This document shows positions 8,642 to 13,737 of a DNA stretch of 58,184 bases, in pieces. How positions within the stretch are numbered: position 1 is the first letter of the stretch; every line of letters starts with the position of its first letter. This DNA is from a virus. Lineage: Duplodnaviria > Caudoviricetes. The notes beneath the pieces are model-generated. The model was not told where the DNA came from and made no database searches. It worked only from the letters and a program-made list of their open reading frames with translations. The translations under genes were made by a program, and so were the position numbers. The stretch is from positions 1 to 58,184 of the IMG/VR virus record IMGVR_UViG_3300025862_000141; one strand, written 5' to 3'.

Positions 8642-9031
8642 ATGAAAACGTATCAGATCACAGTTACGGAAGAACAAGCGGAGATCTTGTCTCGGGCCTG
8701 TGAACTCATAGCGCGGTGTAACATGCCTATGTCAACGCCACGAGGATTGCGGTCTACGCAGATAGCCGAAGATTTGGTTCGTCGTGTGGAATATCCAGAC
8801 GGTGGTATGGATAAGTTACGTGAAGCATTTTCATATGTTATTGATTTTTATAAAGTGAACCATAATGATGCTTTTGATATGTATCAGGTCATTCGTCATA
8901 GATTGGCGTATGACCGTCTTAAGCCAGGAGAAAAACCTGGGGTTACGGTTGATTACCAGGAACCGTTTCGGATGGGGGCACAACCGTTGGCGAAAATTGA
9001 ATGTGTTGATGAGAGGGTCAATGCCAAATAA
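8642..9031 (+). CDS. Hypothetical protein
   Basis: MKTYQITVTEEQAEILSRACEL...YQVIRHRLA; 129 aa. Confidence 0.65.
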   Translation: MKTYQITVTEEQAEILSRACELIARCNMPMSTPRGLRSTQIAEDLVRRVEYPDGGMDKLREAFSYVIDFYKVNHNDAFDMYQVIRHRLAYDRLKPGEKPGVTVDYQEPFRMGAQPLAKIECVDERVNAK

Positions 9032-9206
9032 GTTAAAGCCGTATCCAACATGGGTATGTCATAGTTGTGGGACACATGAACGTAAATGTTTGGTTCTTTG
9101 TGCAACTTATCATATGGGTATCTGTGACGTTTGTGGGGAGCGAAAAGTGGTAACGCAACCGCGTGATTTTGGATACCCAAAATTTGTAGGATATGCTTAT
9201 CCATGA
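9021..9206 (+). CDS. Small zinc-ribbon protein
   Basis: GAGGG then ATG 9021; WVCHSCG...TYHMGICDVCG...TQPRDFG. Confidence 0.6.
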   Translation: MPNKLKPYPTWVCHSCGTHERKCLVLCATYHMGICDVCGERKVVTQPRDFGYPKFVGYAYP

Positions 9207-9327
9207 AATCGAAGGAATCCAAAAACCTATGTTCTATTTGTCATTGTAACGAGGTCACAAGACCATTTGATGAATGCTTGAACTGTTTTTTGATTTATGG
9301 TCATAAACAAACTAAGGAGAATGAATA

Positions 9328-9567
9328 ATGAGATTGATCGATATTAAAGACCTACCTAGCCGTGGCGCAAAGAAACCTAAATACGTGAGTTTGATCCTAA
9401 AGGCCATTGATGTTTGTCCCATGGGTAAAGCGCATGAACTTGGTAAAGCTATGCAGGTTATTAGCATGAAAAAATCGTTGGCCTATGTCCAAGCTAAAGA
9501 CCCAAAAACGTCCGCGTACAAAATCATTACACGTGGTGGTAGTACCTGGTTGGTCGGCGGCGAATAA
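9328..9567 (+). CDS. Small basic protein, possibly DNA-binding
   Basis: TAAGGAG Shine-Dalgarno; Lys/Arg-rich. Confidence 0.6.
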   Translation: MRLIDIKDLPSRGAKKPKYVSLILKAIDVCPMGKAHELGKAMQVISMKKSLAYVQAKDPKTSAYKIITRGGSTWLVGGE

Positions 9568-9615
9568 AGTAGGCATGTGTCGGGAAGGTTGTGGACTTCC
9601 CGACTGAGGGGGAAT

Positions 9616-11445
9616 ATGAAGTACGCATCTGTCTGTTCTGGTATTGAAGCAGCCAGCGTAGCGTGGATTCCATTGGGGTGGACATGTTCTTGGCTCGCCG
9701 AAATAGATCCGGTCTGTTGTGCCGTTTTAAAACACCGATATCCTGAAACACCGAATCTTGGCGACATGGAGCACATACATGAAAAAGAAGAATTCAAACG
9801 AGGATCAGTTGACGTTCTCATTGGGGGGCCACCCTGCCAGTCCTTCTCAGTCGCTGGACTTAGAAAAGGAATGGATGATCCGCGTGGTAACTTGTCGCTC
9901 GTCTATCTTAGAGTTGTTGACAAATTACGCCCCCGCTGGTTGGTCTACGAAAATGTTCCCGGTCTTTTATCCAGCTGGTCAGATGCGAAGGAAAGTTTCA
10001 CGCCCGATCATATCGAAGGAGACAATGACGGAAACGCTTACGGACGAGCAACAGAATCAGGATGGCAAACTAACAATTTTGATACCTTCACCAGTGGACT
10101 TTCAGAACTCGGGTACGGGTGGTCCTGGGCAATTTATGACGCACAATTTTTTGGAGTGGCCCAACGACGCCGTCGTATCTTCCTTGTCGGACATATTAGT
10201 GGTGAATCAAAATATCCCTTCGCAGTATTATCTCAGTTCACGAGCTTGCAAGGGAATTCTGCGCCGAGCCGAACGCAGGGGCAAAAAGTTACCGGAACCC
10301 TTGAGGCTCGCACTCGAAGCGGTGGGGGACTCGGAGACATAGAATTTGATGGTGGATTAATAGCCAATACCATAACGACTAGAGAAGGGCATCATGGGGA
10401 ACCTAGTATGGAAACATTAATACCGTTAATGTCGCCGGCATTGAAAGCACGAGATTATAAAGGACCGTTTAGCGATGGTACTGGTGACGGTGCGCCATTG
10501 ATACCGTGTATTGTTCCAACATTGACAGGAAATGCCGCTGGTGATAGGCCGAGTGATTATGCGCCTATGGTTTTTCAAAATGAAGGAGAACAACAGGCTA
10601 CAGCACATAAAGGAAACGCCGCTAAAGCATTGCGATTACTGCGGGATCAAGTTGGAGAGGAAACGTTTTCCAAATGGGGACTTGGAATCCTTATTTCACT
10701 TTATCCATCGGAAGTATTGCGATCAAAAATGTATGGGTTTAATGTTCGACAGCCGACCGAGCCAAAGCACGGATTGGTCAACTACACATTATCACGCACG
10801 GAAATTGGTTCCGGCTGGCCTATGCGAGGAATGTGGGAAGCCGGATGCGACGGATGTCCACCACAAGGATGGAAACCATCAGAACAACTTGCGCTCGAAC
10901 TTGGAACGTATTTGTCGGAGTTGCCACAATCGCCATCATCGGCAGAAAGGTTTATGCAAGATTTGTGGGATTCCGCAGAAGGGACGAGGGTACTGCGTCA
11001 AACACTTGGTACGTTTCAAAAAATATGGAGATCCATTACTGACCAAGGACAATCAGTTTACTCCGATAAGAAAGGAGACGGAGTTGAATCCAGTCAGGAT
11101 ATGCAAGGTGATAGGGTGCTTGGGGAAATACCATGCGAACGGGTATTGCGGGAAACATGCGATATAGGCGTTGAGAGGAAAATTGGGAAAGGTAGCTTTG
11201 ACAAGAAGCGAAGCTTCAAAGAATGTTTGGGAAACCAGACGTTTAAAGTAAGACGATTGGTAGTGGAAGAAACGGAAGCATTACAAGGATTTCCAAGAGG
11301 GTATACGTTGGTTCCATATCGGGGTAAGTTCGCAAGTGATTCTGTTCGATACAAAGGTATAGGTAACAGTTTTGCTGTACCAGTCGTGGCCTGGATTGGT
11401 AAGAGGATTCAAATGGTTGAAGATATTATGAATGAGTTGAAATGA
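9616..11445 (+). CDS. DNA (cytosine-5) methyltransferase, 609 aa, with an enlarged variable region
   Basis: Motif I (SVCSGIEA), IV (GGPPCQSFS), VI (ENVPG), VIII (AQRRRRIF), IX (RRLVVEETEALQGFP) and X (GNSFAVPV); GAGGGGG upstream of ATG 9616. Confidence 0.95.
   Translation: MKYASVCSGIEAASVAWIPLGWTCSWLAEIDPVCCAVLKHRYPETPNLGDMEHIHEKEEFKRGSVDVLIGGPPCQSFSVAGLRKGMDDPRGNLSLVYLRVVDKLRPRWLVYENVPGLLSSWSDAKESFTPDHIEGDNDGNAYGRATESGWQTNNFDTFTSGLSELGYGWSWAIYDAQFFGVAQRRRRIFLVGHISGESKYPFAVLSQFTSLQGNSAPSRTQGQKVTGTLEARTRSGGGLGDIEFDGGLIANTITTREGHHGEPSMETLIPLMSPALKARDYKGPFSDGTGDGAPLIPCIVPTLTGNAAGDRPSDYAPMVFQNEGEQQATAHKGNAAKALRLLRDQVGEETFSKWGLGILISLYPSEVLRSKMYGFNVRQPTEPKHGLVNYTLSRTEIGSGWPMRGMWEAGCDGCPPQGWKPSEQLALELGTYLSELPQSPSSAERFMQDLWDSAEGTRVLRQTLGTFQKIWRSITDQGQSVYSDKKGDGVESSQDMQGDRVLGEIPCERVLRETCDIGVERKIGKGSFDKKRSFKECLGNQTFKVRRLVVEETEALQGFPRGYTLVPYRGKFASDSVRYKGIGNSFAVPVVAWIGKRIQMVEDIMNELK
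9779..10342 (+). CDS. Nested +1-frame protein inside the C5 methyltransferase gene (accessory or beta-subunit-like, 187 aa)
   Basis: GGAG 7 nt before ATG 9779; ends in SLSDIL...PSQYYLSSRACKGILRRAERRGKKLPEPLRLAL, a pattern I recognise from alternative-frame products of phage C5 methyltransferases. Confidence 0.7.
   Translation: MKKKNSNEDQLTFSLGGHPASPSQSLDLEKEWMIRVVTCRSSILELLTNYAPAGWSTKMFPVFYPAGQMRRKVSRPIISKETMTETLTDEQQNQDGKLTILIPSPVDFQNSGTGGPGQFMTHNFLEWPNDAVVSSLSDILVVNQNIPSQYYLSSRACKGILRRAERRGKKLPEPLRLALEAVGDSET
10580..11167 (+). CDS. HNH endonuclease nested in the +1 frame of the C5 methyltransferase gene (~195 aa)
   Basis: CDYCG...RKYCDQKC zinc finger; CEECG...DVHHKDGNHQNN..SNLERICRSCHNRHH HNH core; two C..C...GYC.KH modules. 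Confidence 0.85.
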   Translation: MKENNRLQHIKETPLKHCDYCGIKLERKRFPNGDLESLFHFIHRKYCDQKCMGLMFDSRPSQSTDWSTTHYHARKLVPAGLCEECGKPDATDVHHKDGNHQNNLRSNLERICRSCHNRHHRQKGLCKICGIPQKGRGYCVKHLVRFKKYGDPLLTKDNQFTPIRKETELNPVRICKVIGCLGKYHANGYCGKHAI

Positions 11446-11585
11446 AATTCTTAAAATTTATCCGACAGTTTTGGCATGACTTAAAAAATCCGATGTGTGT
11501 TAAATGTGGTCATTATCATTGGGCTATTTTTGGATTCTGTTGTGACTGCGATTGTGAACCTCCATGGTTTTATAGGGTGAAATAA
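11442..11585 (+). CDS. 47-aa Cys/His microprotein (not in the ORF track)
   Basis: ATGA overlap upstream and TAATG overlap downstream; CVKCGHYH...CCDCDC. Confidence 0.55.
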   Translation: MKFLKFIRQFWHDLKNPMCVKCGHYHWAIFGFCCDCDCEPPWFYRVK

Positions 11586-13162
11586 TGTCAATAACCATAA
11601 AAGTTTTGAACGTTACGAGTACGATTCATGGATTGACCAACGAACAACAGGCATGGGTAGACAATGCGCTTTCGTTTTTTGTTAAAGGCGCACAGTTTAG
11701 TTCTGCTTATAGAAAAAATCGGTGGGATGGACGAACGCGGTTGTATAAAGGTGCTACCGCTGCGGCACCCTTTGGCAAGTTTAGTACAGGGTTATTGTCG
11801 CGGGTTCTGACTGTATTAGCAGACAAGTGTCCTGGGGTAGAGGTGAATGTGATTGATGAACGATTACACCCCGAACGTAATCAACCGATACCGTTAGTAG
11901 GTGGTATAGAGTTACGTGATTACCAATTGGATACGTTGAAGTCAGCACTTGAACGTGGGCGAGGTATTTATCGTCTGCCGACAGCTGGGGGAAAAACTCT
12001 GATTGAAGCTGTGGTTATGGGAACCTTGAATGTTCCAACATTAGTCTTGAGTCATCGAGTGGATATTATGATGTATTTGAAAGAAGAGTTTGAGCGTGTG
12101 TTAGGTGTGCCCATTGGACTTATTCAAGGAACCACCAAGGAATTACGTAAATTTAATGTAGGCATGATCCAAACGATTTCAAACTGTTTTGATAAAAGTG
12201 CGACGGATGAAAAGGCCAAAGCCGTCACGGATTTTATTACGGAGTATTGCCAGTGTCTTATCGTGGATGAAGCGCATCACGCGATCAGCGACCAGTACGT
12301 TGCTTTATTTAATAGAGCCTATGCGAGCTTCTATCGCCTGGGCTTTTCGGCCACGCCATTTCGTGGTGGTGATGAAGACATGATGGTAGAAGCGGGATTA
12401 GGCAAGTTGCAGTTGAGCATGACACCATCAGATCTTATTAAGCAAGGTAGACTTGCCAAGCCATATATTTTCTTTGTGGATTATGGGGACACGTCTAAAG
12501 CTGTTGAAGAAGTGGTCAAATGTCACGATTGTCAAAATGATGTCCTTAGTCGAGAAATTCGGCCTATGGCGGCCGAAATGGAACGTACGGTGTGGGTATG
12601 TACTCAATGTAAAAAGCAATGGACGCTTTACATGGACAACATGGAACGCAACTTGGTTCGCAACGCAAAGCGTAATAAAGTCATAGTGGCGTTAGCGCAA
12701 CGCGAAGTACGAAAGAGACGATCTGTACTTATTGCAGTGACACATATTGCACATGGGCAAATTCTTACTGATGCGTTGTGTAAAGTGATTGATCCGGCAT
12801 TAGTGATGTTTGCACATGGTGAGACGGAAAATCGTCACGATATTTTAGAGAAATTAAGGAATAAGGAATTGCTGGTTGTCGTCCATACCAATATCTTCAA
12901 CGAAGGAATAAATTTGCAAAATCTGAACACTTTGATCACGGCAAAATCAAGTGATAGTCCGATTGACATTATCCAGTTGGCAGGACGTGTGTTGCGCCGA
13001 GCTAAAGGAAAAACAAAGACTGTTATTATTGATTTTCTTGATAAATCCAAACCATTTAGTGCGCGGAGTAAGCATCGGCAAGAATTGTTGGGAGCAGAGT
13101 CTGAATACGTTATCAAGCAATGGAAATATTCACCGAAAAAGAAAGAAAAGGTGTTGGCATGA
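11585..13162 (+). CDS. Superfamily 2 DEAH helicase (UvsW/ResIII-like) with a zinc-ribbon insert
   Basis: LRDYQ, LPTAGGKT, IVDEAHH, GFSATPFR, EGINL and QLAGRVLR motifs. Confidence 0.92.
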   Translation: MSITIKVLNVTSTIHGLTNEQQAWVDNALSFFVKGAQFSSAYRKNRWDGRTRLYKGATAAAPFGKFSTGLLSRVLTVLADKCPGVEVNVIDERLHPERNQPIPLVGGIELRDYQLDTLKSALERGRGIYRLPTAGGKTLIEAVVMGTLNVPTLVLSHRVDIMMYLKEEFERVLGVPIGLIQGTTKELRKFNVGMIQTISNCFDKSATDEKAKAVTDFITEYCQCLIVDEAHHAISDQYVALFNRAYASFYRLGFSATPFRGGDEDMMVEAGLGKLQLSMTPSDLIKQGRLAKPYIFFVDYGDTSKAVEEVVKCHDCQNDVLSREIRPMAAEMERTVWVCTQCKKQWTLYMDNMERNLVRNAKRNKVIVALAQREVRKRRSVLIAVTHIAHGQILTDALCKVIDPALVMFAHGETENRHDILEKLRNKELLVVVHTNIFNEGINLQNLNTLITAKSSDSPIDIIQLAGRVLRRAKGKTKTVIIDFLDKSKPFSARSKHRQELLGAESEYVIKQWKYSPKKKEKVLA

Positions 13163-13737
13163 AACTTGAAGGTACTGCCCTCATCGAAGTTATTAAAAAG
13201 GCAGAATGGCGATTCTGGGCAGGTGTTTACGAAAAATCTGACTCTGAGTGTTGGTTGTGAACTAAATCGGTAAATACCTCTGGATATGGTAATTTACGAA
13301 TAGCGGATAAACTTATGCAGGCGCACCGTGTCTGTTTCGTATTGGTGTATGGTTTTTTACCAGAAGTTGTTATGCATTCGTGTGATAACCCACCATGTTG
13401 TAATCCAGGGCATCTTAAGGCAGGTACGAAGGCATTGAATAGCGCAGATAAAATAGCAAAGGGCAGACAGGTTTATGTTTTTGGTGACCAAAATCCATCA
13501 CGGATGCATCCTGAACGATTATCATGTGGGGATACGCATTATGCACGGACTAATCCAGAATTACTTTGTCGTGGTGAATCCCATCCTGCAACATCATTTA
13601 CGGAAGAAAAAATAAGAGAAATTCGCCAAAGATACGTGCCAGGAATGGTTTCTTATTTGATATTAGCTAAAGAGTATAACGTGGGTATGTCAACGATTGC
13701 TCGGATTATTAAACGAAAGGTTTGGAAACATGTTTAA
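13159..13737 (+). pseudogene. HNH homing endonuclease with an in-frame TGA (13258-13260)
   Basis: ATG 13159 (ATGA overlap): ...RFWAGV....ECWL*TKSVNTSGYG...AHRV...MHSCDNPPCCNPGHL; the stop sits at the second Trp of the usual CWxW motif. Confidence 0.8.

Follow-up and report, generated by a model that had tools for sequence, protein, structure and literature searches.

An HNH endonuclease gene nested one base out of register in a phage C5 methyltransferase gene whose reading frame is kept open by selection

Introduction

How can a complete endonuclease gene lie within the coding region of another gene when neither an intron nor an intein is present to remove it? The question is raised by a locus in the IMG/VR virus record IMGVR_UViG_3300025862_000141 (Duplodnaviria; Caudoviricetes), whose 58,184 nucleotides are the stretch analysed here and are referred to as the window. 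In it, the gene of a C5 cytosine DNA methyltransferase (henceforth methylase) contains, in the +1 frame, an open reading frame (ORF) for an HNH endonuclease. A preliminary description made from the sequence alone had placed a complete-looking HNH protein with zinc fingers between methylase motifs VIII and IX, and had proposed a third way, neither intron nor intein, for a homing endonuclease to be harmless, in which the off-frame is kept open and tolerated as a loop of the host protein.

That the same DNA codes for two proteins in different frames, and that selection keeps the host frame open, can be taken as practically certain. The full account, in which the nuclease is also translated independently and spreads by homing, appears probable to us. 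From the patterns set out below we infer the translation of both products, a cleavage specificity, homing, and a methylase that has retained its activity.

The two overlapping genes

The features on which the argument depends are the following, all on the + strand.

9616 to 11445, +: host C5 cytosine DNA methyltransferase, 609 amino acids (aa), a single unbroken frame from ATG 9616
IV at 9832, VI at 9949, VIII at 10162, IX at 11248 and X at 11362, +: methylase motifs, in order and in one frame
10532 to 11167, +: ORF of the HNH endonuclease, +1 frame; 211 aa if begun at ATG 10532 or 195 aa if begun at ATG 10580, with the stop codon TAG at 11165–11167
10853 to 10939, +: catalytic core of the HNH protein (29 residues of the +1-frame translation), including the zinc-binding Cys pair

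The methylase ORF, for which the ORF listing offers GTG 9577 as an alternative start, matches Pfam PF00145 (E=6e-51) and TIGR00675 (E=5e-46), and carries the signature of the C5 methyltransferases, with motifs I, IV (PCQ), VI (ENV), VIII (QxRxR), IX and X (GN) present in order in one frame; in an AlphaFold2 (AF2) model of the whole protein the core has a predicted local distance difference test score (pLDDT) >90. The nested ORF matches phrog_1271 (E=5e-13) and seven further HNH families of PHROG, and contains the conserved His/Asn/His and the zinc-binding Cys pairs of the beta-beta-alpha metal motif. An alignment of 29 members of the family has invariant columns at C82, C85, H95, N107, C112, C115, H116 and H120, and in the window both the ORF and every invariant residue are intact, so the complete HNH protein with zinc fingers that had been described is indeed there. 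Its position between motifs VIII and IX was also given correctly and can be stated more precisely as the 3′ end of the variable region, beside motif IX. Among the candidates scored, 175 HNH homologs were found at E≤1e-3, and the AF2 model of the HNH protein, built with the family alignment, has a mean pLDDT of 91.7.

Some comparisons count against this identification: the Pfam family PF01844 matches the nested ORF with E=1e-3 and 19.6 bits, under its cut-off of 21.4 bits, and a Foldseek search of the HNH model against the PDB gave no match at E≤0.001, only weak HNH rows, the third-ranked of which is the GVE2 HNH protein (5h0m, E=0.3). The profile of the HNH alignment, compared with solved structures, likewise gave no match with E below 0.045.

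The open host frame

Over the HNH ORF the window has no stop codon in the host frame, as had been noticed at the outset, whereas 12 stops interrupt the third frame between 10532 and 11167. The same arrangement was followed through 96 loci. Two come from named phages, 13 from genome contigs and 81 from viral contigs, these last comprising the best-matching 80 among 171 stretches and one more from an initial scan; with the window they make 97 sources. The genome contigs belong to at least eight phyla, including Pseudomonadota, Actinomycetota, Bacillota, Acidobacteriota and Verrucomicrobiota, and include a Treponema and a metagenome-assembled genome of Gastranaerophilales. In nearly all loci the HNH match is displaced forward by one base from the frame that holds the methylase N-domain, the insert and motifs IX–X, and in 93 of the 97 sources the host frame is free of stops across the HNH ORF, the third frame having 2–18. 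The four sources without clean nesting are two weak partial matches (L007 and L096), the locus L002 of a phage treated below, and L079, in which a relative 48% identical to the window HNH protein is free-standing, with no methylase nearby and with 22 stops in the corresponding frame.

These counts were compared with permutations in which the synonymous codons of the HNH gene were shuffled, 200 times per sequence, once the four non-nested loci and 12 duplicates had been dropped to leave 81 unique sequences. For the window (10580–11164) the permuted sequences have a mean of 10.6 host-frame stops, and none of the 200 has zero. None of the 81 sequences, whose GC contents range from 0.32 to 0.65, contains a host-frame stop; the permutations average 7.8 and reach zero in 0.3% of trials. 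The host frame is thus kept open by selection, and chance is not sufficient to explain it.

The genetic code indicates why such a requirement could be satisfied so easily. All three stop codons of the standard code start with T, and each NNT codon has a synonym NNC. In the +1 register, position 1 of the host codon is the wobble position of the HNH codon, and therefore every host-frame stop can be removed silently by a T-to-C change. Judging from the code together with the counts of stops and the codon-position entropies given below, this register would cost the nuclease nothing.

An open frame also bears on the possibility that splicing removes the module, as an intron or intein that has escaped recognition. 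Its site in a conserved gene and its patchy spread do resemble those of introns and inteins, and divergent ribozymes may evade covariance models. Nevertheless, the covariance-model search for introns that the preliminary description had recommended, run here over 9300–11800, detected no intron or other RNA family of Rfam at E≤10, apart from one chance match to a long non-coding RNA, and at E≤1 Pfam has no Hint or intein family in the window gene, in keeping with the absence of intein motifs reported there. An intein was rejected, as the HNH protein is in the +1 frame and the host in another, with no Hint splicing blocks, and a group I or group II intron was rejected as well, there being no ribozyme match and the host frame being uninterrupted. 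Above all, removal of the module would leave no reason for about 200 host codons (~160–220) to be open in 81 of 81 loci. For the comparable element known as the ShiLan domain, the authors of PMC11855218 concluded likewise. Splicing is, on this evidence, hardly credible. The contigs of three DNA sequencing runs, which are perhaps the window's own source, are identical over 9000–12000 and contain no joint that skips the module; they supply neither independent support nor an HNH-free allele. No RNA run was found to contain the stretch.

Which of the two readings is constrained

Both frames are real, although unequally so, the HNH frame being under the stronger constraint. Across the family, the entropy at HNH codon positions 1, 2 and 3 is 0.91, 0.87 and 1.39, and over the same DNA the identity in the HNH frame exceeds that in the host frame, as in Staphylococcus phage CUB-EPI_14, with 49% vs 24%. 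The insert as read in the host frame (residues about 322–517) is modelled by AF2 as a string of helices with pLDDT mostly between 30 and 70. Since a free-standing relative exists (L079), the HNH reading can be regarded as the older and folded one, and the methylase frame as overlaid on it.

The host reading was then examined for constraint of its own. The 81 sequences were clustered at 75% identity, giving 58, and wobble bases were simulated from the codon usage of each gene with host-frame stops forbidden. The mean conservation of the host-frame columns is 0.459, vs 0.400 in the simulations (maximum 0.409 in 500 simulations). One host-frame Trp recurs in 50 of 53 sequences, against an expectation of 53%, and the HNH residue that gives its first base varies. 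Common ancestry inflates such figures of conservation, and for this reason only a modest constraint is claimed, on a few host-frame residues.

The preliminary description can thus be followed in part. Its dual coding holds, with the direction of overprinting reversed, given that it is the methylase frame that seems to have been laid over the nuclease; and its off-frame is kept open, without being a merely tolerated loop, as a few residues, chiefly the one Trp, are conserved beyond the level that the HNH protein imposes.

A further explanation would be that the insertion killed the methylase, and that base composition happens to leave the host frame open. It could appeal to high-GC relatives, which carry few stops in whatever frame, and to those loci where the host gene is damaged: in 10 of the 84 loci with an N-domain match the N-terminal part of the methylase is out of frame with the remainder, and five loci carry a stop codon, in frame, within motif IX (with a host frame that is nevertheless open over the HNH ORF). 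These loci weigh against our reading as well, and the host gene is not in every locus an intact single ORF. However, a dead gene is difficult to reconcile with 81 of 81 loci lacking host stops over the whole of that GC range, with the downstream motifs IX and X that remain in frame, or with a host-frame conservation above every simulated value; this explanation is extremely improbable. By strict criteria, a single ORF runs unbroken from the first residue of the methylase to the stop past motif X in 35 unique loci.

The stop inside motif IX is found in L005, L010, L019, L068 and L064, which belong to different lineages, at the same spot, where T-P-L precedes the stop and Leu comes next with the remainder of the motif, and two other loci have a two-residue insertion at that spot. 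The shared stop could correspond to a natural split of the enzyme, to read-through or to recoding.

Junctions of the module and start of the nuclease

Three features delimit the module and the beginning of the nuclease.

10576 to 11247, +: host-frame reading of the HNH module, 224 codons from the variable region to motif IX, with no stop
11248 to 11295, +: methylase motif IX in the host frame, the fixed 3′ anchor of the HNH module in the relatives
10583 to 10597, +: ancestral start region of the HNH gene, with a Shine-Dalgarno sequence (SD), AAGGAG, at 10583–10588 and AGG at 10595–10597

Alignment with HNH-bearing and HNH-free methylases places the beginning of the module at about residue 321 and the return of motif IX at residue 545, and among HNH-bearing genes the similarity in the host frame starts about 6–8 codons ahead of the HNH start. 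The preliminary description had counted on HNH-free alleles to define the limits of the insertion, which they do at about residues 321 and 545, without a clean empty site having been found: part of the 3′ stretch past the HNH stop is also present in an HNH-free protein, P0205, as a remnant of the 3′ side of the module.

The 3′ junction is remarkably constant. Motif IX escaped location in 5 of the 81 sequences; in the other 76 loci, the HNH stop is formed by the last two bases of a Leu codon in motif IX (V-R-R-L-T) and the first base of the next codon in 47, and lies nine bases earlier in 8 more, so that in 55 of 76 it falls within the first four codons of motif IX. The window HNH protein is a longer form with an additional zinc-finger tail, and ends 81 nt short of motif IX.

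At the other end, an ATG or GTG occupies one aligned position in 65 of 76 loci. A core SD 4-mer is found at −16 to −4 in 34 of these 65, vs 13% of random 13-nt windows, a four-fold enrichment, and an in-frame stop lies upstream of the aligned start within 10 codons in 28 of 65 and within 30 codons in 42 of 65. Taken together, the aligned start, the enrichment in SD and the upstream stops favour independent initiation over a fusion by frameshift.

The latter would make the HNH protein an alternative C-terminal domain, reached by a +1 shift, just upstream, of the ribosomes translating the methylase and giving a fusion of the N-domain with the HNH protein. The same gene does hold a second conserved +1-frame segment, described below, and the window itself is left without a canonical start led by an SD. 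On the other hand, the relatives have the start, the SD and the stops just mentioned, and a free-standing form exists (L079); we consider the fusion very unlikely.

The start of the window copy is nonetheless a point against independent translation in this particular genome. The ATG codons that remain (10580, 10559 and 10532) all lack an SD, and at the ancestral start position there is an AGG, 6 nt past AAGGAG. Consequently, the remark that no strong SD precedes ATG 10580 is accurate, with the qualification that an SD does stand before the ancestral start position, at 10595–10597. On the basis of these letters, expression of the window copy may be low, or its decay may have begun.

Distribution and mobility

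Presence and absence of the module alternate within one host gene and at one site, as in homing genes. Among the 119 proteins closest to the N-terminal 320 residues of the window methylase, 117 lack it, and it is found in only 2 of 80 family members that were collected independently, through the second +1 peptide. A FastTree phylogeny of the methylase N-domain, limited to rows with a full N-domain match, comprises 52 that bear the HNH gene and 117 that lack it; on this tree, whose HNH-free rows were picked for their likeness to the window and are therefore a biased sample, the HNH trait must change state at least 16 times, with well-supported branches forcing 6 of these changes, and one HNH-bearing and one HNH-free row are identical. 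In one pair of loci, L003 and L011, the HNH proteins are 90% identical and the methylase N-domains 55%, with DNA that is 95–100% identical across about 420 nt and 40–78% identical in the flanks. The patchy distribution, the conflicting similarities and the free-standing relative fit a mobile element of the homing type.

Against this must be set several facts: (i) the tree does not distinguish gains from losses; (ii) the identities of the HNH protein and of the methylase are correlated (Spearman coefficients of 0.58 for the N-domain and 0.70 for the C-part; 40 loci, 780 pairs), and therefore much of the history of the module is co-inheritance; (iii) the tract of identity between L003 and L011 stops within the HNH ORF and not at its borders, so that general recombination fits equally; (iv) two proteins identical either side of a 300-residue indel, P0235 and P0205, were rejected as an empty-site pair, since P0205 retains the 3′ remnant of the module and is without the extra specificity modules, and is therefore a product of deletion or recombination.

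The variable region of these methylases is itself a mosaic of short repeated modules that vary in number and order (in P0154, P0196, P0207, P0235 and the aligned loci), which suggests multispecific enzymes that shuffle specificity modules through recombination. General recombination must therefore contribute to the pattern.

The same data serve to weigh the idea that nuclease and methylase form a compact restriction-modification or addiction pair, in which the nuclease would hit unmethylated host or rival DNA and the methylase would protect the phage, the nested arrangement serving to link the two genes. HNH-type restriction enzymes exist, the HNH protein is seldom found apart from a methylase (93 of 97 sources are nested), and the identities of the two are positively correlated. 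Most close relatives of the methylase, however, do without the HNH protein (117 of 119, and 78 of 80), and the relative in L079 has no methylase nearby. Moreover, near-identical HNH modules stand behind different sets of specificity modules in L003 and L011, and therefore the specificities of the nuclease and the methylase are not matched. We judge such a partnership unlikely.

The account that we prefer would then be as follows. A mobile, homing-type HNH gene would reside, unspliced and shifted by one base relative to the host frame, within the variable region of a C5 methyltransferase gene. The ribosomes that translate the methyltransferase would read through the module, adding about 200 poorly ordered, mostly helical residues before motif IX, and a second set of ribosomes would start internally, at the SD and ATG that most relatives possess, to produce the nuclease. 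This would probably cut or nick HNH-free alleles of the methyltransferase gene near the conserved sequence of motif IX, and repair would copy the module into the allele that had been cut.

A different arrangement is observed in Komagataeibacter phage phiKX1 (LC644975.1; L002 1357–3013), where an HNH protein 38% identical to that of the window is found between motifs IX and X of a different type of C5 methylase. The motifs of this methylase are distributed over two long overlapping frames, one with I–VIII and X and the other with W-P-T-P repeats and IX, and the record annotates just fragments, as hypothetical proteins.

No close phage relative of the window was found when positions 1–25000 were compared by megablast with phages, and blastn of the methylase gene gave merely short matches at the level of motifs.

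A second peptide in the +1 frame

The nuclease is not the only reading of interest in the +1 frame of this gene.

9758 to 10342, +: second +1 ORF, whose selected C-terminal part, 10148 to 10342, overlaps the stretch past motif VIII, outside the HNH module

By tblastn this ORF is matched in 71 of the 84 loci with an N-domain match, and of the 68 matches accompanied by an N-domain match, 62 are in the +1 register. In an alignment of 53 loci the codon-position pattern flips directly past motif VIII, position 1 of the host codon becoming the most variable, and over the last ~60 codons the +1 reading is 80–90% conserved at many columns, vs 30–60% for the host reading. The host frame is open across the peptide in 58 of 60 loci, and permutations give zero stops in 36% of trials. 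The N-terminal two thirds of the ORF show a marginal excess of openness (mean of 140 vs 95 codons in shuffles), and the mean share of shuffles that match the observed length of the ORF is 0.20. To judge from the conservation at codon positions, it is the +1 frame of the last ~60 codons that is under purifying selection, the methylase frame being merely held open.

The peptide is widespread. A full HMMER search with it retrieved 3311 protein clusters at E≤1e-3, and its core motif occurs in at least 592 stretches of viral contigs. Each of 80 loci fetched by this motif has the peptide in the +1 register, overlapping the N-domain of the methylase, whose ORF runs on without a break in 76 of them; in 2, motifs IX–X continue in the +1 frame. 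In 5 of ten database proteins scanned, the peptide is joined in frame to the C-terminal motifs of a methylase. No family of Pfam, PHROG or NCBIfam and no PDB match was obtained with the second +1 ORF, and its comparison by BLASTP with an in-frame methylase of a Staphylococcus phage was not significant (E=1.9).

A complex of the last 77 residues with the N and C parts of the methylase was predicted with a score of 0.48, the best control giving 0.00, which lends weak support to an association: in the calibration of this score, 58 of 80 solved complexes and 2 of 110 mismatches attained such a value, and 7 of those 80 solved complexes and both mismatches were at 0.60 or under. At least 49% of the contacts agree between runs, with a partner pLDDT of at least 61.

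Tentatively, and with somewhat less than an even chance of being right, the peptide may be conceived as a real, conserved and missed product, either a subunit acting in trans or a segment joined by frameshifting, in which case dual coding would be ancestral and obligate in these genes, the HNH module would exploit the same tolerance, and the methylase ORF of this large phage family would act as a scaffold interwoven with other genes. A trans subunit could, by analogy, resemble the small chain of the methylase M.EcoHK31I, whose beta chain is encoded in another frame inside the alpha gene of a C5 methylase; this is the closest and only precedent found for the second +1 peptide, with the difference that the M.EcoHK31I small chain carries motif IX, which in the window is part of the main frame, the +1 peptide there coming after motif VIII. 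As a lead, the second peptide may perhaps be more novel than the HNH module.

In Mycobacterium phage Omega (NC_004688.1) the second +1 ORF (L097 2726–3199) is unannotated. The methylase of that phage is annotated as two coding sequences (CDSs), gp127 and gp128, in the same reading frame with a stop codon between them.

Comparison with known systems

The proposal of a third way, neither intron nor intein, stands, although not its newness. An out-of-frame HNH gene in a phage methylase was first described in 2025 as the “ShiLan domain” (Arsenault, Gosselin, Gogarten, Genes 2025, PMC11855218), its host-frame reading having still been a mystery domain in Gosselin et al. 2023 (PMC9957025). According to the 2025 article, the domain is 202 aa long and is found in actinophage methylases, with a host frame free of stops and no features of introns or inteins; the HNH protein, of 195 aa with zinc fingers, is read in the “third frame” from a GTG 18 bp in and ends in TAAC, has no ribosome-binding site, so that leaderless initiation was proposed, and is disjunctly distributed among methylases (PMC11855218). 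A second hidden HNH gene is mentioned there in phage Pacc40, and further cases “in other phages and prokaryotes” (PMC11855218), a list that might include the family of the window. One more case is mentioned in a genome announcement.

The similarities with the ShiLan domain are considerable, for in both a zinc-finger-flanked HNH protein of ~195 aa is encoded in an alternative frame of a phage methylase whose own frame is open, there are no features of introns or inteins, the distribution is disjunct, and the host reading is a helical or looping structure predicted with low confidence. When the window element is compared with what defines the ShiLan type, the nested HNH ORF, the open host frame, the lack of intron and intein features and the disjunct distribution are all found. 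The differences from what is reported there are that the offset is +1 and not the “third frame”, that the site of insertion is another, that most relatives of the window family have an SD and an ATG, in contrast with a GTG and no ribosome-binding site, and that the window HNH family extends across many bacterial phyla, in contrast with the actinophage methylases. Searches by tblastn with the window HNH protein and with one actinobacterial member, at E≤1e-5 and 1e-3, gave no mycobacteriophage match, in a collection in which the presence of ShiLan is unconfirmed; this is therefore a different or very distant HNH family, and homology to ShiLan is unproven rather than excluded. In any case, the principle was already published in 2025, and the window family extends its known range with a different frame offset and a different site.

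What is added concerns first the extent of the phenomenon, since the carriage of a nuclease as “neither intron nor intein” is widespread in phages and prophages of many phyla, beyond a few mycobacteriophages. It concerns also the evidence for selection: the tests given here do not appear in the accessible text of PMC11855218, and to our knowledge they are the first quantitative evidence of a host frame held open by selection on the silent sites of a nuclease. Gene callers output only the long methylase ORF, and therefore most annotations contain neither the nucleases nor the second +1 peptide. The constancy of the junction at motif IX would point, as far as the alignments go, to the target site of a putative new family of site-specific nucleases.

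Related arrangements exist elsewhere. A tblastn search with the C-part of the Omega methylase matched only mycobacteriophages of cluster J, in which (phage Yeet, MN183286) a methylase of the window's family contains an HNH ORF in another frame, with the host frame open throughout. Unlike that of the window, the HNH protein of Yeet belongs to a different family, has no zinc fingers, is in the +2 frame and lies directly past motif VIII. In the Yeet record (MN183286.1; L098 801–1418) the nested HNH gene is annotated as a CDS inside the methyltransferase CDS, and it separates the N-terminal part of the second +1 ORF from its conserved C-terminal peptide.

Endonuclease genes free of introns and inteins are also found in T4-like phages, where mobE and the seg genes reportedly spread among phage genomes by cleavage and repair. 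The nrdA gene of phage Aeh1 is reportedly split by a homing endonuclease. Such genes lie between other genes or split the host gene into two translated pieces, whereas the host protein of the window is one chain. As for complete genes embedded in another, Rz1 of phage lambda lies in the +1 frame of Rz; unlike the window HNH protein, Rz1 is a functional partner of Rz and not a mobile nuclease.

Neighbouring genes

Two further genes were noted downstream of the methylase. A separate, free-standing HNH ORF of another family (13315–13737, + strand; phrog_59, E=1.4e-16) is found 2 kb downstream, and a helicase-like gene (11585–13162) sits between it and the methylase.

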